A stretch of DNA of 64,000 bases from IMG/VR virus record IMGVR_UViG_3300045988_090963, one strand, 5' to 3'. Each line of letters starts with the position of its first letter. Positions within the stretch are counted from its first letter, which is position 1. The DNA comes from a virus. Both the position numbers and the translations under genes were made by a program. The notes below the pieces were generated by a model. That model worked only from the letters and a program-made list of their open reading frames with translations, was not told where the DNA came from and ran no database searches. Positions 20,397-58,972 of the stretch are shown here, one piece after another.

Positions 20397-21806
20397 ATGA
20401 CTAATGCTCAAATTATTTGGAAATACTTTAAAGGCAAAGGTTTTAGTGATTGCGGAATTGCCGGTTTAATGGGTAATCTTTATGCCGAAAGTGGTCTTAA
20501 TTCTATTAACTTATAGAACACCTATGAAAAAAAATTAAAAATGACCGACGCAGGATATACCTCCGCAGTTGATGATGGAAGGTATAAAAACTTTGTAAAA
20601 GATGGGGCGGGATATGGATTGGCTCAATGGACATTTTGGAGCAGAAAACAAAATTTGCTTTAGTTCTGTCAAAGTCGAGGTAAATCCATTGGAGATTTAA
20701 ATACTCAATTAGATTTTTTATATTAGGAGTTAATTACAAGTTTTTCTAGTTTAGTTAAAATTTTGATTTCTGCCACTTCTGTCACAGAAGCCTCTACCGC
20801 AGTATTACTCTAGTTTGAAAGACCTTCAGACTAGAGTTTTTCTATGCAACAAAAGAGAGCTAATTATGGTCAATAGTATTATAATAAATTTGCTAACATT
20901 TCAAATGTAATTGAAGGAGGTAATAAAATGAAATATAGCGATAGCAATAAACCACTTCAATGTATGATGACAAATAGCACTTGCTATAAACAAACACGCA
21001 CCATGCAAGTTAAAGGAATCTTATGGCATAGTACTGGTGCAAATAATCCTAATTTAAAAAGATATGTATAGCCAAGCGATAATGATCCTAACTACACCAG
21101 TTTAATAAATAAATTAGGAAAAAATACTAGCAAGAATGACTGGAATCATATATCTGTTCAAGCTGGATTAAACTGTTGGATTGGTAAATTGGCTGATGGA
21201 ACAGTAACAACAGTATAGACAATGCCATGGAATTATCGTCCTTGGGGATGCGGTTCTGGGTCTAAAGGTTCTTGTAATAATGGATGGATTCAGTTTGAAA
21301 TTTGCGAAGATGGATTAAATGATGCAAATTATTTTAACAAAATTTATGAAGAGGCTTGTCAAATTACTGCTTATTTATGTAAAATGTATAACATAAATCC
21401 ATTGGGAACCACTACTTTAAATGGTATCACCGTTCCGACTATTTTATGTCATGCTGATAGTCACAAGCTAGGATTAGGATCTAATCATGCAGATGTAAAC
21501 CATTGGTTTCCAAAATTTGGGAAAAGCATGGAAACCGCAAGAACAGATGTTTATAATTTAATGTCAAATATCTAGGAGGATGATGAAGATATGACTGACG
21601 AGAAATTCGCTGAACTTATGAATACTTGGCTTACTAATAAAGCTAATGAAAAAGAAACTTGGGGCACCGATAATCTTGAATGGGCTAAAGCGAATGGGAT
21701 TATGGCTGGAGACAGTGCTGGAAGAATGATGCCAAATAAATTCTGTACTAGATTAGAAACTGTAACTATGTTAAGAAGATTGGCTGAAAAGCTGGGTTTA
21801 AAATGA
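20397..21806 (+). CDS. multi-module endolysin, 9 in-frame TAG
   Basis: Three modules in one frame with no TAA/TGA until 21804: (1) Phage_lysozyme2-like N-module (GIAGLMGNLYAESG...GYGLAQWTF..R...QLDFL..FERP...RANYGQ.YY); (2) Amidase_2/PGRP module (ILWHSTGA...CHADSHKLG); (3) C-terminal SLH-like cell-wall-binding module (W..DNLEWAKANGIMAGDSAGRMMPNKFCTRLETVTMLRRL). Strong internal RBS and ATG at 20929 could give a second product (amidase-SLH). Confidence 0.55.
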
Positions 21807-22729: not shown

Positions 22730-24619
22730 ATGTCAGATAAGTTATATAATGAAAAAAGTATTGAGTCATTAAGTCCTCTAGAATTTACTCGTTTAAGACC
22801 TGGGGTATATTGTGGAGATACATCAACTTCTACTCAATTAGTAGTAGAGATTGTATCAAACTCGGTAGATGAATTTAGATTGGGTCACGGTAATGAAATA
22901 GACGTACAAATTAATGGTGCCAGAGTGTCTGTCAGCGATCATGGTCAAGGATTTATTCCTAATTCTTTTAGAGAAGATGGGAAAACAATTTTGGAAGCCG
23001 CATTTAGTGTATTAAATACCAGTGGTAAATATAGAGAAGATGGAACTTATGAGGGAACTTCTCTTGGTAGTTTTGGTATTGGTAGCAAACTTGCAACTTA
23101 TCTTAGTCATGAATTAACTGTGTGGACATATAGAGATGGAGAAGGAGAACAAGTAAGATTCAAAGAGGGCATTTTTGAATCTAGAGATTCTTATAAGGTT
23201 GATAAAAATGTTCATGGAACTTCTGTTTTCTGGATTGCAAGTGAAGAGTTTTTTACTGATCCAAAGCCAGACGCAAAAGCATTAAACTCCTTGTTTAAAA
23301 CTATTGTATGTCTTTGTCCGGGGCTAACTATCAAACTAGATGATAATGGAAAAAAGACAGAGTTCTTCTCTAAGAATGGTCTTATGGATTTGTTAGATGA
23401 AGGCGTTAAGGGAAAAGAGATTCTGAAAAATCGTTTCTCAATTAATTTTTCCGAAGGTAAAAATAAGTTGGATTTAGCTCTAACTTACACAAATAACTAC
23501 TCTTCTACGATTGTTCCATATGTAAATACTGGTTTAACAGAAGCAGGTCCGCATATTACGCAAATTAAAACCCTTTTAACAAGAGAATTTAATAAATTCT
23601 TCCGAGAAAAAGGGTGGCTAAAAGATAAGGATGAAAATCTCTCTGGAGATGATTGCCAAGAAGGAATGTATCTTGTTTTTAATATTACAGCACCAAATAT
23701 TGGATATGATGCTCAAGTAAAATCTCGTGTCACAAAACTAGATATGAAACCTTTTACACAAGCAATAGCAGAAGAGCTGCAATATTGGTTCACAACAAAT
23801 GAAAAAGAAATTAAAAGTATCGCGGATAAAGCATTAAATGCTAGAAAAGCAAGAGAGGCAGCTCGTAAAGCAAGAGAGGCAGCAAGAGGAATAAAGACAA
23901 AGAAAGAAACCGGATTAAAGGCAAAAATGAAACTTAGTAATAAGTTTATTGATTGCGGAAATCGTAGTCCTAAAGATCGTAATCTCTTGCTTGTTGAGGG
24001 ACTATCAGCAGGAGCTTCCGCAGTAGAAGCACGAAATCCTAAAACTGATTGCATTTATATGTTGCGAGGAAAGATTATCAGCCCATTAAAGACTGCTATT
24101 GATAAGCTGCTTTCTAACCAAGAAATGTCTGATATTATTAGGATCCTTGGTGGAGGTTTTGGTAAAGATTTTGATATTAGTAAATTGACCGTTGATAAAG
24201 TTGTAATCACGGCCGATGCAGATAGTGATGGTGCAGATATTGAATTAATGCTTATTACTTTCTTCTATACATATATGCGTCCTCTTATTGAAGCTGGTAA
24301 GTTATATAGAGCTGTAACTCCATTATATATTATTCGACAAAAAGGAAAAGAGTATTACTGTTATAGTGACAATGAACTTGAAGAGTGGAAAAAGAATCAT
24401 AGCGGCAGTTATGATTTACTTAGAGCTAAGGGATTGGGAGAATTAAATCCAGAGGATCTGCAAAAAGTATGTTTTATGAATGAAAGATATAAACGAATTA
24501 CTATTAGTGATGCCAAAGCTACCACAGAATTGCTCGAAATTTTGATGGGAAGCGCAGTTGAACCCCGCAAGCAATATATCTATGATAATGCAGAAGAATT
24601 AGGATTTAATTTTGAATGA
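22730..24619 (+). CDS. type IIA topoisomerase ATPase/Toprim subunit (GyrB/T4 gp39-like)
   Basis: GHKL ATPase plus Toprim (EGLSAGAS; DADSDG). Confidence 0.7.
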   Translation: MSDKLYNEKSIESLSPLEFTRLRPGVYCGDTSTSTQLVVEIVSNSVDEFRLGHGNEIDVQINGARVSVSDHGQGFIPNSFREDGKTILEAAFSVLNTSGKYREDGTYEGTSLGSFGIGSKLATYLSHELTVWTYRDGEGEQVRFKEGIFESRDSYKVDKNVHGTSVFWIASEEFFTDPKPDAKALNSLFKTIVCLCPGLTIKLDDNGKKTEFFSKNGLMDLLDEGVKGKEILKNRFSINFSEGKNKLDLALTYTNNYSSTIVPYVNTGLTEAGPHITQIKTLLTREFNKFFREKGWLKDKDENLSGDDCQEGMYLVFNITAPNIGYDAQVKSRVTKLDMKPFTQAIAEELQYWFTTNEKEIKSIADKALNARKAREAARKAREAARGIKTKKETGLKAKMKLSNKFIDCGNRSPKDRNLLLVEGLSAGASAVEARNPKTDCIYMLRGKIISPLKTAIDKLLSNQEMSDIIRILGGGFGKDFDISKLTVDKVVITADADSDGADIELMLITFFYTYMRPLIEAGKLYRAVTPLYIIRQKGKEYYCYSDNELEEWKKNHSGSYDLLRAKGLGELNPEDLQKVCFMNERYKRITISDAKATTELLEILMGSAVEPRKQYIYDNAEELGFNFE

Positions 24620-24631
24620 GGAAGTGTATAA

Positions 24632-26998
24632 ATGAGTAGTTTAATTACAGAAGTAGATATTCTTGATGAAGCAAAAAACACATTTTTAACATATGCAGAA
24701 GAGGTTTTAACTGATAGAGCCATTCCTGCGGCGGAGGATGGGCTGTTAAGCGCGCAAAGAAAAATCATTTGGACTATGGAAGATTATTTAAAGATGAATA
24801 ATAAGAGTAAGACCAAAAAGTGTAATGCTATTGTTGGTTCTACTCTAGCCACCTCTTACTTTCATGGTGATATTGCTTGCTATGGTGTTCTTCGAAAGAT
24901 GGCACAACCATTTTTAATGCGTTATCCTCTTATTACAGGACAAGGACAATTAGGAACTCAAGAAAATAATGATATGTTTTCTTCTTCTCGTTATACAGAG
25001 GCAAAACCTTCATTATTTGCTGATATAATGATGAATGATTACAAGAAAAATGTAGTTCCAATTAAAGAAACATATAATGGAGAATTTATGGAGCCAGTGA
25101 TTTTACCAGCCCTTTTTCCAAATGCTATTTGCAATGGAAGACAAGCCATTGGCATTTCCATGGCCCATAATAGCGCTCCACATAATTTAACAGAAGTATG
25201 TAATGCAGCAATTGCTCTAATTCAAAAAGGCTCGCTCACTATTGATGAATTACTAACCTATATTCCTGGCCCAGATTTCCCTCTTGGCGGAACTGTTCTA
25301 AATATCAAGGATGTAAAGAGCGCGTTTAAAACGGGAAAATCCACAATCTCTTTGAAAATTCAAGGCGACTATGAGATTGATGGGCAAAAAATTATCTTTA
25401 CAAGTATTCCTTATAGAACCTATCGAAATAAAATAAAAGAGCAAATAGAGAAGAATATTGAAACATTAAGTGAGATTATTGAAGATTTTGATGATGAATC
25501 AAATATCGGTAATAATAGGCTTGTATTTTATGTAAAAGATGGTGTTTCTGTATCTAAAGCATTAAATCAATTATTTGTATTAACTGACTTACAATCTTCT
25601 ATTTCTTATAATATGAATTATATTGTAAATGGAACTCCTAGACTTTGCTCAATGATAGATTTATTACAGATTTATGTCAGCCATCAGGAAGATGTATTAA
25701 TTAAAGCAACTCAGTTTGATAAGGAAAAAGCTGAGGCCCGCAAACATATTCTTGAGGGATTGATCGCTGCTGTTGATAAAATTGATGAAGTTATCAAAAT
25801 TATTAAAAGTGCAAATAACACTAATGAAGCAAAGAAAGAACTAATTGCTTTCTTAGATGTAGATGATATTCAAGCTAAAGCTATTTTAGATATGAAACTT
25901 GGCAAATTAACTCGCATTGATAAACAAGAGTTAGTTGACGAGCTAAACGAAAAAATAGAGTTTATAGCTAAGTGTAATGAGTTGTTAAATAATAAAGAAG
26001 TAAGGAATAATAAGTTAATTAAACTTATTACCGAACTTAAAGATACATATGGAGATGCTCGCCGCACAAAACTTATTAATACAGAAATCCCTAAACAAGA
26101 GAAAGAACAAGTAGTTGTAGAGCCAGAAGATTGCGTTGTTATTATTTCTAGTAAAGGCACAGTAAAAAGAATTGCAAAAAAAGCCTTTAAACCTCAAAAA
26201 AGAAATACTACTGGAATGAAAATTAATGACATTATAGCGTTTTCTTCTGCTACAAATACACAAGATACTTTGATGATATTTTCATCAAAAGGAAAGATGT
26301 ATAGACTGCTCGTGGATAATATTCCAGAAGGAAATAACAATTCTATTGGCGTACCCTTATCTACTTTGATTACTTTTGAAGATAATGAAGCTCCTATGGC
26401 ATATACTACTTTAACAAGAGATACAAATAAGAAGTTTATATTCTTTGCTACTAAAAAAGGAATAGTCAAAAAAGTTCCTCTGGAAGAATATGACGCAATG
26501 AAGAGAACTGGAATTGTATCAATTAAGTTAAAAGATGGTGATGAACTTGCAGCAGTAACTTTTATAAATCAAGAGGAAATGATACTTGTTACTAAAAATG
26601 GAATGACTATAAGATTTAATACTGCGGAAATGCCAATTTCTTCTAGAACCGCGCAAGGAGTAAAAGGAATGAATATATCCGATGATGATAGTATTATCGC
26701 TGCATTACCAATAAGTAATAATGCAGATTACCTTGCTATTATTTCAAAAGATGGTCTTGGAAAGAAAATTGAGTTAAAAGAGTTTAATAAACAAAACCGC
26801 GGTGGCAAAGGAGTATCATGTTACAAAGGAACAGTTGTCGGAGCAGAATTGGTGTCTGATGATAATGATATTTTAATTTCTGGTAATAAGAGTTCTATTG
26901 TCGTTAGTGTAAAAGATTTTCCCAAGCTATCAAGAATTTCTATGGGAAATATAATGATAAAAAATAATGATAAGATTATTTCAGTAGCCAAGATTTAA
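24632..26998 (+). CDS. type IIA topoisomerase DNA breakage-reunion subunit (GyrA/T4 gp52-like)
   Basis: DGLLSAQRKIIW; active-site SRYTEAK. Confidence 0.7.
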   Translation: MSSLITEVDILDEAKNTFLTYAEEVLTDRAIPAAEDGLLSAQRKIIWTMEDYLKMNNKSKTKKCNAIVGSTLATSYFHGDIACYGVLRKMAQPFLMRYPLITGQGQLGTQENNDMFSSSRYTEAKPSLFADIMMNDYKKNVVPIKETYNGEFMEPVILPALFPNAICNGRQAIGISMAHNSAPHNLTEVCNAAIALIQKGSLTIDELLTYIPGPDFPLGGTVLNIKDVKSAFKTGKSTISLKIQGDYEIDGQKIIFTSIPYRTYRNKIKEQIEKNIETLSEIIEDFDDESNIGNNRLVFYVKDGVSVSKALNQLFVLTDLQSSISYNMNYIVNGTPRLCSMIDLLQIYVSHQEDVLIKATQFDKEKAEARKHILEGLIAAVDKIDEVIKIIKSANNTNEAKKELIAFLDVDDIQAKAILDMKLGKLTRIDKQELVDELNEKIEFIAKCNELLNNKEVRNNKLIKLITELKDTYGDARRTKLINTEIPKQEKEQVVVEPEDCVVIISSKGTVKRIAKKAFKPQKRNTTGMKINDIIAFSSATNTQDTLMIFSSKGKMYRLLVDNIPEGNNNSIGVPLSTLITFEDNEAPMAYTTLTRDTNKKFIFFATKKGIVKKVPLEEYDAMKRTGIVSIKLKDGDELAAVTFINQEEMILVTKNGMTIRFNTAEMPISSRTAQGVKGMNISDDDSIIAALPISNNADYLAIISKDGLGKKIELKEFNKQNRGGKGVSCYKGTVVGAELVSDDNDILISGNKSSIVVSVKDFPKLSRISMGNIMIKNNDKIISVAKI

Positions 26999-37021: not shown

Positions 37022-38773
37022 TTGGAATATTCATTAATTAACCCAAGAAATTAGGATTATAGTGCTTTAGAGTAGGTATTAGTTAATAGAGGTATTAAAT
37101 ATGGTGATATATAGCATTATTTAACAGTATCAGAAAAAGATAATTTATCTCCCTTACTTCTTAATAATATTGAAAGCGCTGCTAAGCTAATTATTAAGCA
37201 CATTTTAAAAGACAACTCTTATATTTATGTCTAGGTAGATAGCGACTGCGATGGTTACACCTCTTCTGCATTATTGCTAAATTATCTTCATGCGCAGTTT
37301 CCCTCTGCAATTAACAAGTTTGTTTATAACTTCCATTCTGGTAAAATTCATGGAATAAAACCAGAATTAATCCCCGATAATATTTCTCTTGTTATTGCAC
37401 CGGATTCAAGCTCTAACGACTATCAAGAGCATGAAGAATTGGCTAATCGCGGAATTGATGTATTAGTTATAGACCATCACTTAGCTGATAAAATATCTGA
37501 ATACGCCTGTGTTGTTAATAATCAGTTATGCGATTATCCAACAAAATCGTTATCTGGTGTAGGAGTAGTTTATAAATTGTGTTAGTATATGGATAGTATT
37601 TGCGGAACTGCCTATGCGGACAATTACCTTGATATTGTAGCCACCGGTCTTGTAGGAGATATGATGGATATTAGAGATTTTGAAACTCATTATCTTATTC
37701 AATAGGGGCTACAGAGGTCAAGTCTCCGCAATCCTTTTATTAAAGGTATGGCTGATAAAAATGCTTACTAGTTAGGCAGAGGAGATTTATCTCCTATTGG
37801 AGTAGCGTTTTATATTGTTCCTCTTGTTAATGCCATTACTCGTATGGGTACTCAAGATGAAAAGTAGATTTTATTTGAAAGTATGCTTGAATGGAAAGCA
37901 TATGATCTTATTCCTTCTACTAAACGAGGATGTAAAGGGCAAGAGGAAACTAGATTAGAGCAAGCATTAAGAGTTTGCACTAATGTTAAGAATCGTTAGA
38001 CTAGAACTAGAGATGCCGAAGTTGAACAAATAGAGAATATTATTCAAGAAAAAAATCTATTATAGCATAAACTTTTAGTAATTAAACTAGAAGATATGTA
38101 GGTTGATAGAGGTATTACTGGTTTAATTGCTAATGAATTAATGAGTAAGTATAAGCGCCCCGTTATTCTCTTATCAAAGACTGTAAACAATAAACAAGAT
38201 GCTTGGGAAGGATCAGCTAGAGGATACGAAAAGTCTAAATTAAATGATTTTAGACAATTTGTAAGAGATTCAAATTTAGTCTTTTTAGCTGAGGGGCACG
38301 CAAATGCTTTTGGCTTTGGCATTTATGAAAAAGATTTTGAAGATTTTATTACATGGTCAGACAATCAATTAAAAGATATAGAATTTTCGCCAAGCTATAA
38401 GGTAGATTTTATTTACTCTATGTCAGATATTAATTCTAAAGATATATTAGAACTAGGCAATTCTAAGTATCTTTGGGGATAGAATATCGACGAACCGCTA
38501 ATTGCGGTAGAAAATGTTGCAGTAACAAATGACATGATTAGTCTTATGTCACGAGACAAGAATCCTACTTTGAAGATTCAATTACCAAATGGAGTTACTT
38601 GCATCAAGTTTAAATCAAGCGAAGAGGAGCTAGAAGATTTATCTAGCGAATTAGGTTGCGTGAGTATAAATTTGATTGGTAAACCAGAAGTAAATAGATA
38701 CTTCGGTAGTGTGACACCACAAATTATTATTACAGATTATGAAATTATAAGTAGATAGAAGTATTACTTTTAA
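37022..38773 (+). CDS. recJ: RecJ-like DHH/DHHA1 phosphoesterase (ssDNA exonuclease), 13 in-frame TAG, TTG start
   Basis: DHH motifs VDSDCDGYTS, IAPDSS, VLVIDHH; DHHA1 motif GHANAFGFG; the frame is open from 37019 to TAA 38771 only if TAG is sense. RBS AAGGAGAG before TTG 37022. Confidence 0.6.
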
Positions 38774-41132: not shown

Positions 41133-44100
41133 ATGGGTATGTACTTTAACAATCATGCGCATACGGAGTTTAGTAACTTGCGTTTGCTAGATTGTATAAA
41201 TAAACCTGAGGCACTGATTGATAAAGCTATTGAAGTCGGATTGACGGGAATTGCTATCACAGACCACGAAAGCCTTTCGGCGCATATGAGAGTAAATAAA
41301 TATGCAAAGAAAATTAGGGAGCAAAATCCCGATTTTACGATTGCATTAGGAAATGAGATTTATTTAACTGATACAAGAGATTTAGGACAAAAGTATTATC
41401 ACTTTATCCTAATCGCGAAAGATAAAGAAGGATATAGAGGACTAAAGGAGTTATCCTCTATTGCTTGGATGAATGGATATTATGACCGTAGAATGGAACG
41501 CGTTCCTTTGCTTAAATCTGAGCTTAAAGATGTAATGCAGAGATTTAAGGGTCATATTATTGGGACTACTGCTTGTATTGGTGGAGAACTTGGTAGTTCC
41601 ATTTTAAATCTTCATAATTGTGAAGAAATTAAAGATGAAATTAACGCACAGAGATACCATAATCAAATTGTTGATTTTATGACATTCTGCATTGATGTAT
41701 TTGGTAAAGATGATTTTTACATTGAATGTGCTCCCGCTTCTTATCCAGATCAAATTATCGCAAATAAAAGAATGTTAAGTATCTCTGAGGCTTTTAATAT
41801 AAATATGTGTATTGGAACAGATGCGCATTACTTAACAAAAGAAGATAGATATGTTCATAAAGCGTATCTTAATTCTAAGGGTGGAGAACGAGAGGTTGAT
41901 AGTTTCTATGAGTTTACTCATTTGATGGATGAACAAGAAACTAGAGAACTTCTTAGATTGAGTTATGACGAAGGCATAATTGATTGGATTTTTAAATGCT
42001 CAAACGAAATGAAAGATAAAATTGAATTTTATTCTCTTGAACGTCATCAATCAATTCAAGAAGTAGAAGTAACAGATTATAAAAAAGGGTTTGTACCATA
42101 TCAGTGGGAAGATAAATATCCTGTTCTATCTAGTTTGATTTGGAGCGATAATATTCAAGAAAGATATTGGGTAAATGAATGTATTATTGCTTTGCAGAAA
42201 AAAGGTTTATTTAATGATCCTAGATATCTTGAAAGATTAGAAGAAGAAGCAAGAGTAAAGAGAGTGATTGGAGAAAAACTAGGAACTTGTATGTTCGCAT
42301 ATCCAAATACTCTAAAACACTATGTAGATTTGTTCTGGAATTGCGGAAGTACCGTAGGCGCGGGGCGAGGATCAGCTTGTGCTGCTTTGAACCATTATCT
42401 TCTTGGAATCACTCAACTAGATCCCATTGAATGGGATCTTCCTTTCTGGCGCTATATTAACGATGAAAGAACTGAACTTGGTGATATTGACCTAGATTTG
42501 GCACCATCAAAAATTCAAAAGATTTTCGCGGAGATTAGAAAAGAACGAGGAGAACTTGGCTTAGTACAAGTTTGTACTTTTGGCACAGAAGGAACTAAAT
42601 CTGCGATTTTAACAGCTTGTCGAGGCTATCGTTCAGAAGATTATCCTGATGGAATTGATGTAGATATGGCTCAATATATGAGTTCTCTTATTCCACAAGA
42701 AAGAGGTTTCTTATGGCCTATTGAGGATGTAGTTAATGGTAATCCAGAAAAAGGTCGTAAACCTGTTACAGTTTTTGTAAATACTGTGAATCAGTATCCT
42801 GGATTATTAGATATTATTACTAGAATACAAGGACTAGTAAATAAACGTTCGAGTCATGCTTCTGGAGTAATCTTATTTGATCAAAATATTTTTGATACAG
42901 CCGCAGTAATGAGAACTCCAAAAGGAGCATTAATTACTCAATGGGATCTTCATGATCAAGAAGCCGCTGGATCTGTCAAGTATGATTTCTTGCTTACAGC
43001 AGTACAGGATATTATTATTCAAACTATTGAGCTATTGCAAAAAGATGGCGCTATTGAAAAAGATTTAACATTGCGTGAAGTCTATAATAAATACCTCCAT
43101 CCATCTGTCCTCCCACAAGACGATAAAAAAATGTGGGATGCTCTTGCCAATGGAGATGTTCTTGGCTGTTTCCAATTTGATTCTAGTGTTGGTGCTCAAG
43201 CAGCAAAAAAGATTAAGCCTCAAAATCCGCACGAAATGGCGGACGCTAATGGATTGATGAGACTAATGACTGCGGAAAAGGGTGCAGAAACTCCAATGGA
43301 GAAGTATGTTCGTTTTAAAAATAATATTTCTCTTTGGTATAAAGAAATGGATCAGCAGGGTTTAACAAAAGAAGAACAAAAAATTCTTGAACCTCATTTC
43401 TTACGTTCTTATGGTGTGCCTCCCAGCCAAGAACAAATGATGACTATGCTTCAAGACCCAAATATTTGTGGATTTACGTTAGCTGAAGCTAATACTGCAA
43501 GAAAAATAGTTGGTAAGAAGCAAATGAACAAAATTCCAGAATTAAGAGAAAAAGTTTTAAATTCTGCAAAGTCTCCAGCATTAGGACAATATGTATGGAA
43601 TTATGGCATCGGCCCGCAAATGGGCTATAGTTTCTCTATTATCCATGCTCTTGCTTATAGCTTTATTGGTATGCAAACTCTTTATCTTGCTACCCATTTT
43701 AATCCAGTATATTGGAATACAGCATATCTTATTGTCAATAGCGGTGCCATTAATGAAGAAGAAGGAGAACAATCAGATTATACCAAGATTGCTAAAGCCA
43801 TTGGAGAAATTCGTAATGCTGGTATAAAAGTGTCTTTGGTTGACATTAATCATTCTGATTTTGGTTTTAAACCAGATGTTGAACATAATCAAATCTTGTT
43901 TGGTTTAAAAGGGTTATCTAATGTAAACAATGATTTAATTAAAACCATTGTTGATAATCGCCCCTATGTATCTTTAATTGATTTCTTTAATAAAGTACAT
44001 CCAAATAAACAAGCAATGATTTCTTTAATTAAGGGCGGAGGATTTGATCAGTTTCATCCTAGGATGGAAGCAATGATTCAATATATATGGATTACCTGTG

Positions 44101-45014
44101 ATAAAAAGAAAAGAATTACTTTACAAAATCTACCTGGGTTAATGAGATATAATCTCATTCCTGATGATGAAAAATTTGTAATGCCCAAAAGAGTTTACGA
44201 ATTTAATAGATATTTAAAGGCAGAATGTAAAGACCCATATAATGCAGGTAAGTATAAGCTAGATGAAAGAGCAATAACTTTCTTAGTTGAAATTGATTGC
44301 GAAAAACTGCTTGAAACAGATAATTTAATTTGGTATATTGATATAAAATCTTGGGATAAGGTTTATCAAAGTTACATGGATGTATTTAGAGCATGGATTG
44401 CAGAAAACAAAGAAAAGATTTTAGATGACTTAAATACTACAATCTTTATGGAAGATTGGAAGAAATATGCTTCTGGTAATATTTCTTCTTGGGAAATGGA
44501 ATCTTTGTGCTTTTATTATCATGACCATGAATTATCAAATATCAACAATAGTAAGTATGGTTTTGTAGACTTCTTTAGTTTACCAGAAGAACCTCAGGTA
44601 GATAAGGTATTTAAAAAGGGTGCTTCATTAATTCCTATCTATAAGCTACATAAGATTTGTGGAACTTGTATTGCAAAAAATAAAGTAAAAAGTACGGTAT
44701 ATCTTCTTACCACCACTGGAGTTGTAGCGGTTAAGTTTAGACAAGAATACTTCGCGTTGTTTGATAAGCAAACTTTCCAGAGAAACGAAGATGGCACAAA
44801 AAAGGTCATAGAAAAATCATGGTTTAATAGAGGTAATATGATTGTTGTGCAGGGAATTAGACGCGGAGATGAATTTGTAACAAAGAAATATGCAAGTTCT
44901 GGAGGTCATCAACTTTATCACATTGATGAAATTGTCAATGGTACAGACTTAATTTTAAGAAGTGAAAGAAAACAAGGAGAAGAAGAGGATGAAGATAGTA
45001 GCGTTAATGGGTGA
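41133..45014 (+). CDS. dnaE: DNA polymerase III alpha-subunit family (DnaE-like, N-terminal PHP domain)
   Basis: PHP motif HAHTEFS; GAGRGSACAALNHYLLGITQLDPIEWDLPFWRYIN..DIDLDL matches DnaE [30 protein letters not shown]. Confidence 0.7.
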   Translation: MGMYFNNHAHTEFSNLRLLDCINKPEALIDKAIEVGLTGIAITDHESLSAHMRVNKYAKKIREQNPDFTIALGNEIYLTDTRDLGQKYYHFILIAKDKEGYRGLKELSSIAWMNGYYDRRMERVPLLKSELKDVMQRFKGHIIGTTACIGGELGSSILNLHNCEEIKDEINAQRYHNQIVDFMTFCIDVFGKDDFYIECAPASYPDQIIANKRMLSISEAFNINMCIGTDAHYLTKEDRYVHKAYLNSKGGEREVDSFYEFTHLMDEQETRELLRLSYDEGIIDWIFKCSNEMKDKIEFYSLERHQSIQEVEVTDYKKGFVPYQWEDKYPVLSSLIWSDNIQERYWVNECIIALQKKGLFNDPRYLERLEEEARVKRVIGEKLGTCMFAYPNTLKHYVDLFWNCGSTVGAGRGSACAALNHYLLGITQLDPIEWDLPFWRYINDERTELGDIDLDLAPSKIQKIFAEIRKERGELGLVQVCTFGTEGTKSAILTACRGYRSEDYPDGIDVDMAQYMSSLIPQERGFLWPIEDVVNGNPEKGRKPVTVFVNTVNQYPGLLDIITRIQGLVNKRSSHASGVILFDQNIFDTAAVMRTPKGALITQWDLHDQEAAGSVKYDFLLTAVQDIIIQTIELLQKDGAIEKDLTLREVYNKYLHPSVLPQDDKKMWDALANGDVLGCFQFDSSVGAQAAKKIKPQNPHEMADANGLMRLMTAEKGAETPMEKYVRFKNNISLWYKEMDQQGLTKEEQKILEPHFLRSYGVPPSQEQMMTMLQDPNICGFTLAEANTARKIVGKKQMNKIPELREKVLNSAKSPALGQYVWNYGIGPQMGYSFSIIHALAYSFIGMQTLYLATHFNPVYWNTAYLIVNSGAINEEEGEQSDYTKIAKAIGEIRNAGIKVSLVDINHSDFGFKPDVEHNQILFGLKGLSNVNNDLIKTIVDNRPYVSLIDFFNKVHPNKQAMISLIKGGGFDQFHPRMEAMIQYIWITCDKKKRITLQNLPGLMRYNLIPDDEKFVMPKRVYEFNRYLKAECKDPYNAGKYKLDERAITFLVEIDCEKLLETDNLIWYIDIKSWDKVYQSYMDVFRAWIAENKEKILDDLNTTIFMEDWKKYASGNISSWEMESLCFYYHDHELSNINNSKYGFVDFFSLPEEPQVDKVFKKGASLIPIYKLHKICGTCIAKNKVKSTVYLLTTTGVVAVKFRQEYFALFDKQTFQRNEDGTKKVIEKSWFNRGNMIVVQGIRRGDEFVTKKYASSGGHQLYHIDEIVNGTDLILRSERKQGEEEDEDSSVNG

Positions 45015-45534
45015 AGCAGGAAGTGGGAAGGATACTATTCTCCATAGTATTATGGAGAAATATCCTTCTTATTTCAATGAAATTATCAGTTGTACTACAC
45101 GCCCTCCGCGAGAAGGGGAAAAAGAAGGAGTTAATTATTATTTTCTATCTATTGATGAATTTACAAAAAAAGTTCTTAATGGAGATATGCTAGAAGCAAC
45201 AGAATTTAATGATTGGCATTATGGTACAGATAGAAAAAGTCTAACAATAGACAAAATAAATATAGGGGTCTTTAACCCTGAAGGAGTAAGATGTCTGCAA
45301 GAAGATGACAATATTGAGCTTTATGTATTTTATGTGCGGGCCGCGGGTAAATAGAGATTATTAAGATAGTTAAATAGAGAAGAAAATCCTGACGTAAATG
45401 AAATTATTAGAAGATACAAAGCAGATGCGGAAGACTTTCATTTCCTTGATGATATAAAATATAAAACTCTTAAAAACGACACCTTAGAAGATATTGATGT
45501 CGCTGTTGATACTATATTTGGACAATTTTATTAA
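44989..45534 (+). CDS. gmk: guanylate kinase-like NMP kinase (2 in-frame TAG)
   Basis: P-loop GEAGSGKDT; CTTRPPREGE..GVNYYF; the C-terminal helix after the TAG at 45352 (RLLR.LNREENP..IIRRYKADAED..FLDDIKYKTLKNDTLEDIDVAVDTIF) matches the Gmk C-terminus. Confidence 0.6.
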
Positions 45535-45602
45535 ACAATTATATCTTAAATTACAATATATAGTGTTCAACTAAAAATTTTATACAAGGAGTTGTTTTAT
45601 AT

Positions 45603-47816
45603 ATGCTTCAAGTAAGAAAGAGAAATGGTATCCTAGTACCATTTGATAAAGAGCGTATTATTAACGCTATAAATAAAGCTTTCATCGAAGTTGATGGGGC
45701 ATTATATGAAGATGATACAGCAAATGATATTGCAGATGAAATTAAGTATGCTGTAAAAACATCTGATGATGTAGTTTCCGTTGAAAAAATTCAAGATATG
45801 GTTGAAGATTATCTTATGAAATCTGAACGTAGAGACGTAGCCAAAGAATATATTAGATATAGATATAAAAGAGAGATTGCAAGAAAAGGCCAAGATGATT
45901 TTATTAAAGCCTTTTCTGCAAAGATTCAAGGTTCTGATATTGAAAACCAAAATGCCAATGTAGATGAAATGTCATTTGGCGGACGAGTTGGAGCAGCGTC
46001 AGATTTACAAATGAAAAGGTATGCTCTTGATTATTTAGTTTCTAATAAATCACGAGTAAATCATGAAAATAATAGAATTTATATTCATGATTTAAATGCT
46101 TATGCTGTAGGTATGCACAACTGTCTTTCTATTCCTTTCGATGATTTACTTGAAAAGGGATTTAATACTAGACAAACTGATGTGCGCCCCGCGGGTTCTG
46201 TAAATACCGCTTTCCAGCTTGTTGCAGTTATTTTCCAACTACAGAGTTTACAACAATTTGGTGGAGTATCTGCTACTCACTTGGATTGGACTATGGTTCC
46301 ATATGTACGAAAGAGTTTTTATAAACATTTTAATGATGGACTTGTTTATGTTGAACATACTTTATCTATGGATGATAGATTAAATTCTACTCTTCCTATT
46401 GATAGTGAAATATATAAAGAATACCCAAATGCGTATCAATATGCTATAGATATGACAGAAAGAGAGACTCATCAAGCAGTTGAAGGTATGTATCATAATT
46501 TAAATACTTTGTAGTCTCGATCTGGAAATCAATTACCTTTTACTTCTATTAACTATGGTACTTGTACTCTTCCAGAAGGGAGAATGGTAATTAAGGCTTT
46601 ACTTGAAGTTTCTATTGAGGGACTTGGTAGACTTCACAAAACTTCTATTTTCCCTTGTGGCATCTTTCAATGTGCAAAAGGAATTAATCGAGCTCCTGGT
46701 GATCCCAATTATGATTTATTCAGAATCGCTTTAAAATCTACTGCTTTAAGATTATATCCCAATTATGCCAATGTTGATTGGAGCGGAAATGCAGGATATG
46801 ATAAAAATGATCCTAAGACATACTTCTCTACTATGGGTTGTAGAACTGCGAATGGGTTCGACATTAATGGATTAGGCCAACAAAAAGATGGTCGTGGAAA
46901 TATTTGTCCAGTAACAATTATTATGCCAACATTGGCTATGGAGGCTAAAAAGTATTGGGAAACCATGCCAAGCGGAGACGACTCTTGTGTTGAAACTTTT
47001 ATTGATTTCTTAGATCAAGCTATAAATGATGCTAAAGATATGCTTCTTGAGAGATTTGAGTATATTTGTTCTCAACCCGCGGAATCCGCGAAATTCATGT
47101 ATGAAAACGGCTTAATGGCTGGATATGATGGAATTTCTACTCGAAGCGCTTTAAAACATGGAACTTTAGCTATGGGACAACTTGGATTAGCTGAAACTCT
47201 ACAAATTCTTATTGGTAAAGACCATACCACAGAAGAGGGAATGAAGTTAGCTAAGCGTATTGAGCAATTATTCAAAGATAGATGTGCTGAGTATAAAGAA
47301 AAATATCAACTAAATTTCGGAGTATATTTTACTCCAGCCGAGAATTTATGTTATACAGCTATGACTAAATTTAAAAATAAATACGGAATTATTCCAAATG
47401 TAAGTGATAAAGAATACTTTACTAACTCTATTCATGTTCCTGTATGGAAACAAATGTCCCCTTTTGATAAGATTGATATTGAATCCCAATTAACTGGCTA
47501 CTCTTCTGCCGGTTGTATCACTTATGTTGAACTTGATAGTGGTATGGAGAATAATATTGATGCATTAGAGACTTTAGTTAATTATGCTATGAATCATGAT
47601 ATTCCATATTTTGCAATTAATGTCCCTAATGATACTTGCTTAAAATGTGGTTATACTGGTGAATTTAATGATAAGTGTCCAATGTGTGGTAGTGAAGATA
47701 TTCAACAGTTAAGACGCGTAACAGGATATCTTACTGGAAATTATAAAACAGCCTTTAATAAAGGAAAAGTAGCCGAAACACAAGCGAGAATTAAACACGT
47801 GGGGTATATGGAATGA
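45603..47816 (+). CDS. nrdD: anaerobic ribonucleoside-triphosphate reductase NrdD (1 in-frame TAG at 46512)
   Basis: ATP-cone; glycyl-radical motif RRVTGYL; C-terminal Cys4 zinc ribbon; fragments in the same frame. Confidence 0.75.
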
Positions 47817-48286
47817 AGTATGCAGGTATTATAAAAAATGACTTTTCTGCCGCACCTGGAGTGTCTTTGAGTTTTTTTACATAGGGATGTCCTCATAGAT
47901 GTCAAGGTTGCCACAATCAAGAGACTTGGGATTTTAATGGAGGAAAAGAATTTACCCATGAAACCCTTAATTCAATCTTAGAAGGGCTTACTGCAAATGG
48001 AGTTAAAAGAACTCTATGTATTATGGGCGGCGAGCCACTATGTCCAGAAAATACATTTCTAACTCATTTGGTAATACAAACCGCAAAAGAAACAATTCCT
48101 GATTTAAAGGTTTATTTATGGACTGGATACTTGTATGAAGATTTAAAAAATTCAACAGATACAGTTATTTAGAATATATTCCAATTAGTTGATGTGCTAA
48201 TTGATGGGCCATATATTGAACATGAAAGAGATATTACGGAACCTCTTAGAGGAAGCCGCAATCAAAAAATAATTTATCTAAAATGA
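47813..48286 (+). CDS. nrdG: anaerobic RNR activating protein NrdG (radical SAM), 2 in-frame TAG
   Basis: FFT[TAG]GCPHRCQGCHN = CxxxCxxC; the TAG aligns with the Gln of FFQGC in PflA-type activases. Confidence 0.65.
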
Positions 48287-48825
48287 ACTTTGTAAAGAGT
48301 ATTTTAGGAGGATTAATGATAGCAATAGCTAGCTATATCTACTTATCTGTTGGAGGTATAGTTGGAGCTATTATGTTTTCCATTGGCCTACTGACTATAT
48401 TAAATATGTAGTTTAAATTATTTACAGGTTCAGTTGGTTATATCAAGAGCAAAAATGATATAAAAGATAACTTCATTATTTTAATAGGAAATATTATTGG
48501 AGCGTGCGGGATCTTAGCCTTTCCGCACGCAGCCGCCCTATCTCTAGTCTCTGCTAAGATCGCGATCCCACTATATTTAGTTTTCTTAAAGGGGATAGTT
48601 TGCGGCATATTTATATATTCAGCAGTATCCTCGTTTAAAAGAAATAAAGATTATATGGTGCCAGTCTGCGTAACAGGTTTTATATTATTCGGCGGAGAAC
48701 ACTGTATTGCCGATCTTTGTTACGCCCTGGCCGCAGGCGTATTTTCTATTGATATAGTATTATTTTTAATAGTAGTTACAATAGGCAATGCTATTGGTGC
48801 AATTATTGTTGACAGAATAAAATAA
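48283..48825 (+). CDS. formate/nitrite transporter (FNT)-like channel, short form (1 TAG)
   Basis: FNT motifs FKLFTGS and LFGGEHCIAD; about 5 TM. Confidence 0.45.
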
Positions 48826-48861
48826 TTATGATATTATATTAAAAGAAATGGAGGACTAGAT

Positions 48862-49200
48862 ATGACTTTATACGAGCTAAATCAAGCGGGATATGCCTCC
48901 CTTCCAAAAATGACGAAGGCTGAATTAGAGAAAGCTAAAGAAAATATTATCACATTCTTAGATTCCAATGATTCTAGATATTATATGATGCTTAATCACG
49001 ATAATAAATATTTTACTTTATTTACCTATGAAAACGATGTAAATAAAAATAAAATGGCAAGCGAGATTATTTCTGTTTCTAAGACACTTGGAGAAATCAA
49101 GGCAATAGAAATAAATGGAAATATTGTAGAAATTTGGATTTTACATGGAGAGAAATGTGATATGTATGCGTTCTTTGATTATACAAAAGGGGTGATATAG
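48862..49200 (+). CDS. hypothetical protein
   Basis: RBS GGAGG; TGATATTAT promoter upstream at 48833. Confidence 0.45.
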   Translation: MTLYELNQAGYASLPKMTKAELEKAKENIITFLDSNDSRYYMMLNHDNKYFTLFTYENDVNKNKMASEIISVSKTLGEIKAIEINGNIVEIWILHGEKCDMYAFFDYTKGVI

Positions 49201-49202
49201 GT

Positions 49203-49469
49203 ATGACAAATGCTATTATTGTAAATTATGATCCATTTGCTATGGAATCTGCTGTATATGTTGTTGATAATGGACTACAAAAACAAATGAAAGTATGCTC
49301 TGATATTAATGGATTAGCTGAAGCGCTTGTAGGAATTGCTTATGGAAATGGAATATATAGTATACAAGTTCATGCTCCTTTTGCAATAACAGGAGAAATC
49401 AATAAACTTGTAAATGATTTGGAAAAAAATATGTATTCAAATAGTAAAATTACAGTTGAGGGAATTTAA
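49203..49469 (+). CDS. hypothetical protein
   Basis: ORF. Confidence 0.4.
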   Translation: MTNAIIVNYDPFAMESAVYVVDNGLQKQMKVCSDINGLAEALVGIAYGNGIYSIQVHAPFAITGEINKLVNDLEKNMYSNSKITVEGI

Positions 49470-49713
49470 TATGTTTTATAATTTAAAGTCTACAAATACT
49501 TATAGGGTGCCTACTGTAGAAGATGCTCTTAGATTGCGCAAATGGTTAGAAAAAACCTCGGTAGGAGAATTAACTTCATTTAAATACACTACTAAATATA
49601 TTAAGCAAAAAGGTGAAATAGTTGAAGAGTATCAACTCGTCACTGCCACTATTACTATTGACAACGAGAAAGAACCAGAAGGCATTATGCCAATTACTAT
49701 TATGGAGGAATAA
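49470..49713 (+). CDS. hypothetical protein
   Basis: RBS GAGGG. Confidence 0.4.
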
Positions 49714-49714
49714 T

Positions 49715-50281
49715 ATGGGTGTATATTTTGAGAAAGTGAGTCGCTTTAATGACATTGATCTACCTATTCCAACCCGCGCGACCGCCAATTCCGCAGGTTA
49801 TGATTTCGTAGTCGCAGAAGATACAGTTCTACCTCCAATGAATTTTTTAACTTCTAAAATTCAAGACCATATTTTTGAAAAAGATAGTGACAAGGATTTT
49901 TATGGATTTGTGAGCCCTTTTACTCTTGATGATATGGCCAATCTTACTAAAAAATTAAAGTCTAAGATTACTCTTGTATCAACAGGAATGAAATGTCATT
50001 TAAATCCTGGTCAATATCTTGAATTAAGTGTTCGCAGTTCTACTCCTCTTAAACATTGGATTATTTGCGGAAATAGCGTTGGTATTATTGATGCCGATTA
50101 TTGTGATAATCCAGATAATGAAGGAGAGATCTTTTTCCAGCTTGTTAATTTATCTCCTTTTGCTATTCAGTTAAAGCGTGGAGATAAAATTGGACAAGGA
50201 ATTATTAAGAGTTATCAAATTACTGATGACGATAATGCAACTGGAGAAAGACTCGGTGGATTCGGAAGCACATCTAAATGA
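49715..50281 (+). CDS. dut: dUTPase (trimeric Dut family)
   Basis: RATANSAGYD and GIIDADY motifs. Confidence 0.6.
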   Translation: MGVYFEKVSRFNDIDLPIPTRATANSAGYDFVVAEDTVLPPMNFLTSKIQDHIFEKDSDKDFYGFVSPFTLDDMANLTKKLKSKITLVSTGMKCHLNPGQYLELSVRSSTPLKHWIICGNSVGIIDADYCDNPDNEGEIFFQLVNLSPFAIQLKRGDKIGQGIIKSYQITDDDNATGERLGGFGSTSK

Positions 50282-50750
50282 GTAATCTATTATCACTCGA
50301 TTAGAGTTCGAAGATTACCGGATATGCGGTCTTTGAAGATAATAAGTTAAAAACTTTTGGTAAATTTGCTGTTGAAGATAATAATATAGATACTAGATTA
50401 GTAAAAATAAGATAGAAGATTAAAGATCTTATTGAATAGTATCATATAGATGAAGTAGTTTTTGAAGATATATAGTAGTAGAATAATATTTCTAATAATG
50501 TTTAGACTTTTAAGATTTTAGCAGAAGTATATGGGGTAGTTTCTGAATTACTAGAACAAGAAAAAATTCCCCATTCTTCTATTTTAGCAGTAACATGGAA
50601 ATCTTTATTGGGTATAAAAGGAAAAACTCGACCAGAGTAGAAAAAAAATGCTCAGAATTATGTTTTTTATAATTATGGGGAAAAACCCACACAGGATGAA
50701 AGTGACGCTGTTTGTATCGGCCTTGCGCATATTAAATAGCATCAATGCGC
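50277..50750 (+). CDS. ruvC: RuvC-like Holliday-junction resolvase, 9 in-frame TAG including three consecutive
   Basis: LSLD.SSKITGYAVFE (cf. LGIDPGSRVTGYGV), VVFEDI (cf. FAIEQVF), ESDAVCIGLAH (cf. ADAADALAIAITH). Confidence 0.55.
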
Positions 50751-50772
50751 TTGGTAATATTGGTCTAAATAA

Positions 50773-51264: not shown

Positions 51265-51300
51265 AAATGGGGAACTCAAGTGAGTTCCCCATCCTTCTTT
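51265..51300. terminator. terminator hairpin GGGGAACTCA..TGAGTTCCCC between convergent units (T-run on the - strand side)
   Basis: 10-bp stem; A-run upstream and T-run in the reverse sense. Confidence 0.6.
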
Positions 51301-51338
51301 AAGCGATTAAAAATAGAATTAGTCATATTTATTATTTC

Positions 51339-51602
51339 CTAGCCATATGTAGCAATTAAATCAGCTAGTAATTCTTCTTGTTCGATAGACAATTCTATTC
51401 CATAACTAAACATTGCAGCGTGCGTTAACTCATGACATAAAACTTTTTTCATCATTAATGGAGATAATTCTCCATTAATATAAATACCTTTAGTTTCATT
51501 ATCACAAGCTCCTATCGTTAATTGTCCATCGCTTCTAATTAACATAGGATGAATTGGAGAAGTTAAAAATAATTTCCATCCTTCTCCATTAATATTAAAC
51601 AT
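51339..51602 (-). CDS. small HExxH zinc-metallopeptidase-like protein
   Basis: LCHELTHAAM motif. Confidence 0.4.
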   Translation of the reverse strand: MFNINGEGWKLFLTSPIHPMLIRSDGQLTIGACDNETKGIYINGELSPLMMKKVLCHELTHAAMFSYGIELSIEQEELLADLIATYG

Positions 51603-54842: not shown

Positions 54843-55550
<708 letters not shown>

Positions 55551-57048: not shown

Positions 57049-57214
57049 TTATCTAGACAGAAGAAGTATTTTTCCTGTTAAAAAGTGTACTTTTTCTCGG
57101 AAATTGTTAATGACTTTCTAAAAGACTGGAGCGAAGATCGCTTCCATCCTCGACCTTCTATCTAGTAATTTAGATTTGTTTATAGCAATAGCTAGATAGA
57201 AGGAGGTAAACAAT

Positions 57215-58972
57215 TTGCCTAAATGTATTTTAGCTGAGTAGGGTGGAAAAGGTGGAGGCTCTCTTTCTCTTGTAAAAATTGAAGTAACCACTCCCCCTAA
57301 TAAAACGAGCTATCTTGCTGGTGACACATTTAATCCTGCTGGAATGGTAGTTACCGCATCTTACGGCATGGATGGTGTTATTGTAACAACAGCAGAAGTA
57401 ACTGGATATCAAGTTACTCCAAGTCCTTTAACAGACGGAGTTACTGAAGTAACTATTACTTATTCAGAACTCGGTGAAACTTGTCAAACTGCATAGAAGG
57501 TAACTGTTATTCATAAACTTCTTAGTATTTAGGTTACTACTAACCCAACTAAGATGACCTATGAATATGGCGACACCCTTCAAACAACAGGAATGGTAGT
57601 TACAGCGAGTTACTCTGATAGTAAAAGCGCGGCTGTCACAGGTTATACGTGCTCACCAACATCCTTAACTACAGTTGGCAGCTAGCAAATTACTGTTTCT
57701 TATACAGAGAATGAAGTAACTCAATCTGCGAAATTTACGGTAACTGTTGAGCGTAAATCTGTCGCTAAACCAACCTGGAAAAGTAATCTTACCTATACAG
57801 GTAATAGTCAATCAGTAAGTGGAACTTCTTATTGGAATAATTTCAATACCACTTATATGACGATTGGTGGAACTACTTCCGCTACTAACGCAGGAACTTA
57901 TACAGCTACATTTACTCTAAAGAGCAACTATAGATGGGCTGATAAGACAACCGATAATCTTGATGTAAACTGGGTTATTAATAAAGCCGCGGGTAGTTTA
58001 ACCGTAAATCCAACTTCTGTTGCTCTTGATGGAGATAATTATAGTGCTGGCGTTAAAGTTACTATTACTCGCGCGGGAGATGGAGCTATTAGCTATACTC
58101 CAACTAGTGTTACTGGTCTTACCCTCTCTTTAAGTGGTAATATTCTTACTATTAAAGGTGATGGCAGTACAGCTATTTCTTCTACCACGATTACTATTAA
58201 AGTTGCGGCCGGAACTAACCATACTGCTCCAGGTAACAAGACTGTTACAGTAACAGCAAGCTATTGGGAGTGGGGTTCTGAAACTGCTACTGGTGATGCT
58301 AAGTGGTGGGCTGGATTAAAGACCTGGGCAGCTAAGGCTTCTTCCAGTGAAAGAAAGAAATGTGTAGGTAAAAAGAAACTTGTAAGTCTTTCTAGTGCGG
58401 TACTTGGTGCCAACGCTGCTACAATGATTTGTATTGGTGCTGATTAGGATGGAACTGGAACATTAACTTTCCAGACTGCGGGAACTTTACCTAACAGTAC
58501 ATCATTTGGTAGTAACGCGTTATGGAATGGTTCAACCGCTCAATCCTTGTGCAATGATTTTGGTAATAGATGTAGCGCAACCGCTTCTATTAAATCTGTT
58601 ACTAAGAAGACAAGTTCTGCTAGTAATGGTAATTAGAATAATACTGCGGATGTTCAAACAACTGCAAAATGTTGGCTACCTTCTGAATGTGAGATGGGAT
58701 TTACTAGCTCTAGCGGCTATGCTAGTTCTTATTAGGAGTGGACTGTTGGAGGAAGTTAGACGGCCTATAGTTACTATACAAGCAACTCTACTAGAGTTAA
58801 ATACCAGATGAACGCCAATGGTTCGTTGACGAATTCAACGATGTGGTATTGGGAACGGTCCCGTGGCTACAACTACTCGGGCTACGTTTGCGGTGTCCAC
58901 GGCGATGGGTCTGCGAGCTACGGCTACTACTACCACAGCTACGGGCTCGCGCCGGCTTTCGTCATTGGATAA
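57215..58972 (+). CDS. DGR target protein: Ig-like (Big_3-type) repeats plus C-terminal C-type-lectin/DUF1566-like variable domain; 8 in-frame TAG; TTG start
   Basis: RBS GAAGGAGG 8 nt before the TTG; repeated PNKTSYLAGDTFNPAGMVVTASY...VT motifs; the C-terminus CWLPSECEM...WYWERSRGYNYSGYVCGVHGDGSASYGYYYHSYGLAPAFVIG carries the VR. Confidence 0.6.
58857..58955 (+). repeat. DGR variable repeat (VR)
   Basis: 99-bp near-copy of 59580-59678; all 22 mismatches fall where the TR has A, mostly in AAC codons. Confidence 0.8.

Follow-up and report, generated by a model that had tools for sequence, protein, structure and literature searches.

Gene structure and recoding of the nrdD, nrdG and FNT genes

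Three adjoining plus-strand genes in a 64,000-nucleotide stretch of viral DNA (IMG/VR record IMGVR_UViG_3300045988_090963; hereafter the window, whose positions are used throughout) encode NrdD and NrdG, the predicted class III (anaerobic) ribonucleotide reductase (RNR) and its activase, and a short membrane protein that belongs to the formate/nitrite transporter family (FNT). nrdD (45603–47816; 737 aa) ends in TGA (47814–47816) and contains one in-frame TAG (46512–46514); nrdG (47813–48286; 157 aa) also ends in TGA (48284–48286) and contains two in-frame TAGs (47882 and 48170); the minimal FNT-family channel gene (48283–48825; 180 aa) runs from ATG at 48283 to TAA (48823–48825), with TAG as codon 43 (48409–48411). 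ATGA overlaps, read from the window sequence, join nrdD to nrdG and nrdG to the FNT gene. The initial annotation had given the locus these coordinates and had noticed the coupling of nrdG to the third open reading frame (ORF); both are exact, and the overlap at the nrdD/nrdG junction is a second one of the same kind. As read from these overlaps and the shared TAG codons, nrdD, nrdG and FNT are one translationally coupled, TAG-recoded operon within a phage's replication and nucleotide module.

All three genes hold an in-frame TAG, and none is intact under the standard bacterial code: the standard-code ORF list presents nrdD in two pieces and reduces the FNT gene to a 56-aa tail. At codon 24 of nrdG the window and two near-identical contigs have TAG where eight other relatives have CAA (Gln), and if TAG is treated as a sense codon, 79 non-overlapping ORFs, many with several TAGs, occupy 95% of the window. 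Standard-code ORF calling, which splits the genes, was dropped on the evidence of nrdG codon 24 and of this ORF coverage. Going by the same two observations, the whole window is recoded from TAG to Gln (genetic code 15), and nrdD, nrdG and the FNT gene are intact because TAG is a Gln codon in this phage. The TAG at FNT codon 43 is kept in eight close relatives; two others (L006 and L007) have AGA and GGA, and more distant FNT homologues carry Gly, Asp, Asn or Glu at this position. No tRNA gene, and hence no suppressor tRNA, was found within the 64-kb window. The TAG load is uneven across the window, with none in the genes for DnaE (41133–45014) and topoisomerase (22730–26998), nine in each of the genes at 20397–21806, 50278–50757 and 57176–58972, and 13 in the gene at 37022–38773.

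The start of the FNT gene has an internal competitor, AGGAGG followed by an ATG (48306–48318, plus strand; ATG at 48316, Met12), from which a product of 169 aa would be made. Automatic gene callers choose Met12, and homologues P0001–P0006 were called from it. The GGAGG ahead of Met12 doubles as the codon pair for a conserved Gly-Gly. In other FNT homologues this position is not Met, yet the upstream K-S-I-x-G-G, which is part of the first transmembrane helix (TM1), is conserved; the start at 48283 is therefore preferred.

A promoter and terminator scan of 44900–50400, in which counts were near chance, found no terminator-like site on the plus strand. One strong sigma-70-like site (48809–48837, plus strand; 11 of 12 matches, extended −10 TG) spans the FNT stop codon and lies upstream of the gene that begins at 48862; promoter-like sites in this region are about as frequent as expected by chance.

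Fold, pore and architecture of the FNT protein

The FNT protein reaches 58.1 bits (E = 1.1e-15) with Pfam PF01226 (Form_Nir_trans), whose gathering cut-off is 34.6, and residues 3–175 cover profile positions 22–232 of 240. PF01226 was likewise present on all 73 homologues with precomputed Pfam results, and a profile built from 50 homologues matches the solved chains of FocA, the hydrosulfide channel (HSC), NirC and LCIA. For structural analysis, an AlphaFold2 monomer model of P0007, a full-length homologue 77% identical to the window protein, was used; P0002, a homologue 97% identical, served for the representative search. The P0007 model is of high confidence (predicted local distance difference test, pLDDT, 96.6; predicted template-modelling score, pTM, 0.91) and contains helices at residues 2–22, 24–41/46–52, 56–78, 96–118, 124–135/140–149 and 155–177, the six-helix pattern of an FNT protomer in which TM2 and TM5 are broken by the omega loop and the S loop. 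Foldseek comparison of this model with the PDB returned FNT channels as all top matches, with query template-modelling scores (TMq) of 0.80–0.88 and probability 1.0, in the order HSC (TMq 0.86–0.88), then FocA of Vibrio cholerae, Escherichia coli and Salmonella, NirC and PfFNT. By profile and model alike, the third protein truly belongs to the FNT family (PF01226, TCDB 1.A.16), and it presumably assembles into a homopentamer, like all solved FNTs. No PHROG family matched it. Pairwise comparison with six relatives (amino-acid identity 86–98%) gave ratios of nonsynonymous to synonymous substitution (dN/dS) of 0.04–0.09, values from which the FNT gene is judged to be under strong purifying selection.

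Pore residues were mapped with three concordant HMMER alignments (to V. cholerae FocA, HSC and LCIA), an hhalign alignment to E. coli FocA and a conservation table of 50 homologues; the numbering of the E. coli FocA sequence used for hhalign reproduces published residue numbers. Thirteen residues stand out in the window protein, namely F32, L36, L46, F47, T48, K92, G108, F133, E139, H140, A143, D144 and N169. The central constriction of FocA (F75/F202/H209/A212) corresponds to F32/F133/H140/A143, preserving the FFHA pattern that is found in FocA, FdhC, HSC and NirC-beta/gamma and is not found in YfdC (PMC5525234). The cytoplasmic slit (L79/L89/T91/V175) corresponds to L36/L46/T48/I111, giving LLTI with the hydrophobic character at V175 retained, and the further conserved pore residues K156, E208 and N262 correspond to K92, E139 and N169. 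The mapped residues are invariant in the 50 homologues, except A143 (≥90%) and I111, which is not among the conserved positions. This invariance includes H140 (in GGEHCIAD) and T48 (in KLFTG), the equivalents of H209 and T91, both of which are essential for proton-coupled formate uptake by FocA (PMC11841067). Among the nine conserved pore residues listed by Kammel and Sawers (2022), D88, T91, K156, N172, E208, H209, S210, N213 and N262, five (T91, H209, K156, E208 and N262) are identical in the window protein and four differ: N172 is replaced by Gly (G108), N213 by Asp, S210 by Cys and D88 by Lys. Replacement of N172 by Gly occurs as a natural variant and FocA with N213D is functional (PMC9380403), while Cys at the S210 position (EHC) is also seen in V. 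cholerae FocA. Judged by these residues, the pore appears to be of the formate-channel type.

FocA is longer than the window protein by about 100 residues, and TM1 of the latter begins at about residue 2–5. The alignment of the window protein to FocA starts at FocA residue 30, so that the cytoplasmic N-terminal helix is absent, and with it the 25–32 residues that formate, nitrite and HSC channels carry as a cytoplasmic N-terminal segment. Shortening also affects the TM1–TM2, post-omega, TM3–TM4 and TM5–TM6 loops. E. coli FocA binds PflB through its N-terminal helix, which also gates the pore; without the helix, translocation in vivo is severely impaired (PMC11841067). With a FocA-type gating helix absent, the phage FNT would be gated differently or not at all. 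The initial annotation had described a minimal FNT with two signature segments, and each element of that description holds: F-K-LFTGS occupies residues 44–50 and LFGGEHCIA residues 135–143, the PF01226 match exceeds its gathering score, the 77%-identical homologue is modelled with the FNT fold that FocA shares, and both the missing N-terminal helix and the shortened loops fit a minimal form.

Formate-type reductase and linkage of FNT with nrdDG

NrdD carries the Pfam domains NRDD (482.8 bits), an N-terminal ATP-cone (77.2 bits) and Gly_radical (43.5 bits). NrdG exceeds the cut-off of NCBIfam TIGR02491 (137.5 versus 126.1 bits) and matches Pfam Fer4_12 (125.2 bits); on these profiles it is the radical S-adenosylmethionine activase of NrdD. 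The closest solved relative of NrdD is that of Prevotella copri (8p23; E = 7e-122), an enzyme that requires formate and in which Asn435 replaces a third Cys on beta-strand 6, a diagnostic feature (PMC11226230). Comparison of the window NrdD with 8p23 aligns HNCLS with LTCVQ, TMGCRT with TMGCRT, GRGNI with ARGNL (Asn435) and RVTGYL with RITGYL. The first-strand Cys, the Cys of the MGCR thiyl loop and the radical Gly of RVTGY are thus kept, and the diagnostic position holds Asn, not the third Cys. CR and RGN occupy the diagnostic positions in all 69 alignable FNT-linked NrdDs, nine of whose alignments start inside MGCR, so that only CR is visible there. By this signature the phage NrdD would be of the formate-dependent (NrdD1) type.

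Two features of nrdD stand beside this assignment. A Cys lies two residues past the diagnostic Asn in the window protein (GRGNIC, 46905–46919); RGNIC recurs in most relatives, and RGNLA or RGNIA in a few. In seven relatives (L006, L007, L128, L144, L147, L148 and L153) nrdD is broken by about 1.5–1.9 kb, at or near the MGCR thiyl-radical loop in at least five, and these interruptions look like intron, intein or homing-endonuclease insertions. The window nrdD is uninterrupted.

Close homologues of the FNT protein are 170–190 aa long and lie on many independent metagenomic contigs of about 145–149 kb in which the gene order DnaE, guanylate kinase, NrdD, NrdG, FNT, small ORFs and dUTPase recurs; two of these contigs were binned into Eubacterium and Oscillospiraceae metagenome-assembled genomes. 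The source would be a gut phage of about 146–149 kb, related to SPbeta-like phages. One close variant of the FNT protein was found on 831 contigs in public metagenomes, so the lineage is common in public gut metagenomes. An exhaustive HMMER search returned 1511 representatives at E ≤ 1e-3, and because nearly all of the best 150 are 175–215 aa long, a broad clade of short FNTs exists. Its cellular members, 30–40% identical to the window protein, come from Lentisphaeria/Victivallales, Thermoguttaceae, Methanomassiliicoccales, Bacilli and Oscillospiraceae.

To the short-FNT profile we matched 78 viral and 77 cellular loci, and their contexts separate sharply. nrdD and/or nrdG adjoin the FNT gene at 69 of the viral loci and at one of the cellular loci; at the other 76 cellular loci neither gene occurs within 5 kb. 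A phage that has the channel has it almost always in its nrdDG operon. With D, G and F standing for nrdD, nrdG and FNT, the 69 linked viral loci are arranged D-G-F (44), D-F-G (18), D-F (4), G-F (1) and F-D-G (1), and in the remaining one G and D come after F on the opposite strand. Identity of less than about 45% separates the linked FNTs into at least eight clusters, and between the two largest it is only 34%. A few linked loci (L134, L135, L048 and others) lie on other backbones than most, with NrdDs only 27–51% identical, some of them 27–33%. Loci L170–L204 include many nrdDG operons with NrdD 64–73% identical to that of the window and without FNT. Since many operons with a close NrdD lack the channel, it appears to have been gained or lost repeatedly in the lineage.

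Proposed role, genomic surroundings and related systems

We consider that the FNT gene probably provides a path for formate, most likely for its import, that serves NrdD from within the coupled, recoded operon. NrdG would activate NrdD, which would reduce ribonucleoside triphosphates at the cost of one formate per deoxyribonucleoside triphosphate (dNTP). The 180-aa FNT would act as an ungated or differently gated path for formate or formic acid: a His-containing FNT is expected to move formate as formic acid, and from an acidic gut lumen formate would build up in a more alkaline cytoplasm. In this way the infected cell could take in and accumulate external formate along the pH gradient, so that reductant would no longer limit dNTP synthesis for a large genome. 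By our own estimate, a 147-kb genome and a burst of 50–100 call for about 1.5–3 x 10^7 formate, or tens of mM in a 1-fL cell, and with a demand of this size formate supply could plausibly be limiting. The initial annotation had proposed a formate channel for class III RNR. Its association with a formate-using reductase has gained from the linkage (69 of 78 viral versus 1 of 77 cellular loci) and from the formate-type hallmarks of NrdD, whereas import is only inferred. Pentamer formation, formate as the substrate, the import direction and a benefit to replication are all things that we infer from sequence. If the protein is a formate importer, it would be a new kind of phage auxiliary gene, one whose contribution to nucleotide reduction is a secured supply of reductant and not the enzyme itself, and formate, a cross-fed gut metabolite, would shape phage replication in anaerobic communities.

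Several points weigh against this assignment. FNT pores are poorly selective, and their substrate is not assignable from sequence. The FocA equivalog TIGR04060 scores only 18.4 bits against a cut-off of 290.1, and the generic fnt model TIGR00790 25.1 bits against 232.3; the low TIGR04060 score, together with the absent N-terminal helix, rules out a FocA orthologue. Without that helix, the phage channel may work differently from FocA. hhalign shifts TM4 by four residues relative to the three HMMER alignments, and the assignments of K92, G108 and I111 therefore rest on the latter. G108 itself, at the N172 position, is a hallmark of the uncharacterised YfdC subfamilies. On the genomic side, no neighbour of the cellular short FNTs is common to more than 11 of the 77 loci, so that the cellular contexts give no hint of the substrate. 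Most linked viral loci share a common, diverged DnaE–Gmk–NrdD backbone, and the linkage may thus partly be inherited synteny and not repeated independent recruitment. Among 42 viral loci seeded with NrdD (30–73% identical), FNT is present in only 12 and absent from about 30; it is thus an accessory gene of a subset of phage nrdDG operons. No replacement polytopic membrane protein was found within 4 kb of the FNT-less phage nrdDG genes.

A different substrate or the opposite direction of transport is the alternative that survives best, although we regard it as unlikely. The channel would then export formate, lactate or acetate against acidification, or carry nitrite or hydrosulfide, and its position beside nrdDG would reflect co-expression in an early or middle module. 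This would suit the Foldseek ranking, in which the best matches are the hydrosulfide channel and not FocA, as well as the label 'nitrite transporter NirC' that Joint Genome Institute (JGI) pipelines give to FNT relatives. Solved members of the family are described as carrying formate, nitrite or hydrosulfide, and PfFNT and the low-CO2 inducible LCIA belong to it too; moreover, many nrdDG phages manage without a channel. However, the linkage is specific to nrdDG and persists through changes of gene order, including insertion of FNT between nrdD and nrdG, and the linked NrdDs are all of the formate type. Nitrite- or sulfite-reductase genes were not found among the scanned neighbours, and the pore signature, FFHA with LL(F)T, is that of formate channels.

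It is improbable that the gene is a lysogenic-conversion gene ('moron'), expressed from the prophage and altering formate or organic-acid exchange and fitness of the host, not phage replication. The phage does look temperate, and stand-alone short FNTs exist in cellular gut anaerobes. The gene nevertheless overlaps nrdG by ATGA and lacks a separate start signal at 48283; it lies within the replication module and, through its in-frame TAG, needs the recoding machinery of the phage just as nrdD and nrdG do. Still more improbable, to the point of being hardly credible, is a membrane-active role without transport on a retained FNT-like fold, such as excluding superinfection, acting like a holin or depolarising the membrane. 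A small, very hydrophobic, phage-encoded protein without a PHROG family would invite it; yet the 50 homologues do not vary in the catalytic and constriction residues that working FNT pores have, which is unexpected for an irrelevant pore, and the gene is not part of a lysis module, with amidase- and lysozyme-like genes elsewhere. A decaying pseudogene truncated at codon 43, as the lone 56-aa C-terminal ORF of the standard code might suggest, is refuted by the dN/dS of 0.04–0.09 over the full length, and TAG means Gln across the window, with codon 43 a TAG in eight close relatives and a sense codon in others.

Beyond the window protein, it is possible, though we hold it with considerable doubt, that the short, helix-less FNTs are a distinct minimal subfamily that gut and rumen phages recruited, possibly repeatedly, into class III RNR operons for reductant supply. 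Were this true, formate availability could limit viral DNA synthesis in anaerobes, and the channel might work directly with the glycyl-radical enzyme NrdD, as FocA does with PflB.

The operon is flanked by plus-strand genes of nucleotide and DNA metabolism. Upstream lie a DnaE-type DNA polymerase III alpha subunit (41133–45014), about 40% identical to the enzymes of SPbeta-like and Enterococcus EF1-like phages, and a guanylate kinase (Gmk; 44962–45534; Guanylate_kin 83.8 bits) with two TAG codons. Downstream, two small ORFs without a Pfam match (48862–49206 and 49203–49469) are followed by a dUTPase (49613–50281; 50.3 bits) and a RuvC-like resolvase (50278–50757; RuvC 34.3 bits). Just beyond the replication module, on the minus strand, are an ImmA-like M78 peptidase (51276–51602) and a serine recombinase (Resolvase; 54843–55514), and their presence suggests a temperate lifestyle. 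Further along, a 598-aa protein (57176–58972, plus strand) with Big_3 Ig-like repeats and a C-terminal DUF6273 precedes a reverse transcriptase (PF00078; 59988–61205), an arrangement typical of a diversity-generating retroelement and, from gene order alone, a candidate for one. A NAPRTase-family gene (NAMPT-like phosphoribosyltransferase; 11143–12732, plus strand) is a further auxiliary gene of nucleotide and cofactor metabolism.

Neither a phage FNT nor a link of FNTs with class III RNR operons as a reductant channel is reported in the literature searched, and the FNT family survey makes no mention of phage or virus. A collection of 50,697 GenBank phage records gave only two FNT-like matches, both weak. 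One is in Phage Phass-1 (L005; OQ749652.1, 89049–89729), a code-15 gut phage whose distant FNT-like protein of 226 aa has 29% identity and a hypothetical-protein annotation; within about 6 kb of it, neither nrdD nor nrdG was matched. The other is an unannotated 4.6-kb fragment. The FNT label itself is already in UniProt, on A0A8S5NWF3 ('Formate/nitrite transporter [Siphoviridae sp. ctTnV63]'), which shares the truncated architecture and the EHC(I/V)AD signature, and this virome protein, similar to that of the window, has the only confident FNT fold in BFVD. The cellular short FNTs (about 195–215 aa, from gut and rumen anaerobes) have the same truncated architecture and signature at 30–40% identity; unlike the phage genes, they stand alone in variable neighbourhoods without nrdDG, and none is characterised. 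As for the operon, its formate-type NrdD with NrdG as activase resembles other phage class III RNR operons such as T4 nrdD–nrdG.

Among characterised channels, the best structural match is the Clostridioides difficile HSC (FNT3; PDB 3TDO and others), which reaches a TMq of 0.88 and shows 24–26% identity, and the residues mutated in its deposited structures (L82, T84, K148 and F194) are identical in the phage FNT. HSC differs in its length (256–268 aa) and in an N-terminal helix containing K16, whereas the phage FNT is set apart by its nrdDG context. The YfdC-alpha/beta channels share Gly at the FocA N172 position, and G108 had raised membership in that group. Their N-termini are the longest in the family (42–55 aa), F202 is replaced by aliphatic and L79 by aromatic residues, whereas the phage FNT has F133 and L36 at these positions and is not extended at its N-terminus; these three hallmarks rule YfdC membership out.

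The likeness to FocA of E. coli, Salmonella and Vibrio extends over the six-helix fold, the broken TM2 and TM5, the His/Thr pair (H140/T48), FFHA, the Leu/Leu/Thr slit and the equivalents of K156, E208 and N262. Both are also tied to a formate-handling glycyl-radical enzyme: FocA is encoded beside pflB and interacts with PflB, and the phage FNT is encoded with nrdD. The roles of the N-terminal helix, N172 and N213 in FNT gating are an active field of study, and a natural variant of about 180 residues, with key pore residues intact and without the N-terminal gate, offers a convenient test object for the FNT mechanism. In contrast to FocA, the phage protein has no PflB-binding gate helix, has shorter loops, carries N172G, N213D and D88K, and is encoded by a phage in a TAG-recoded gene.

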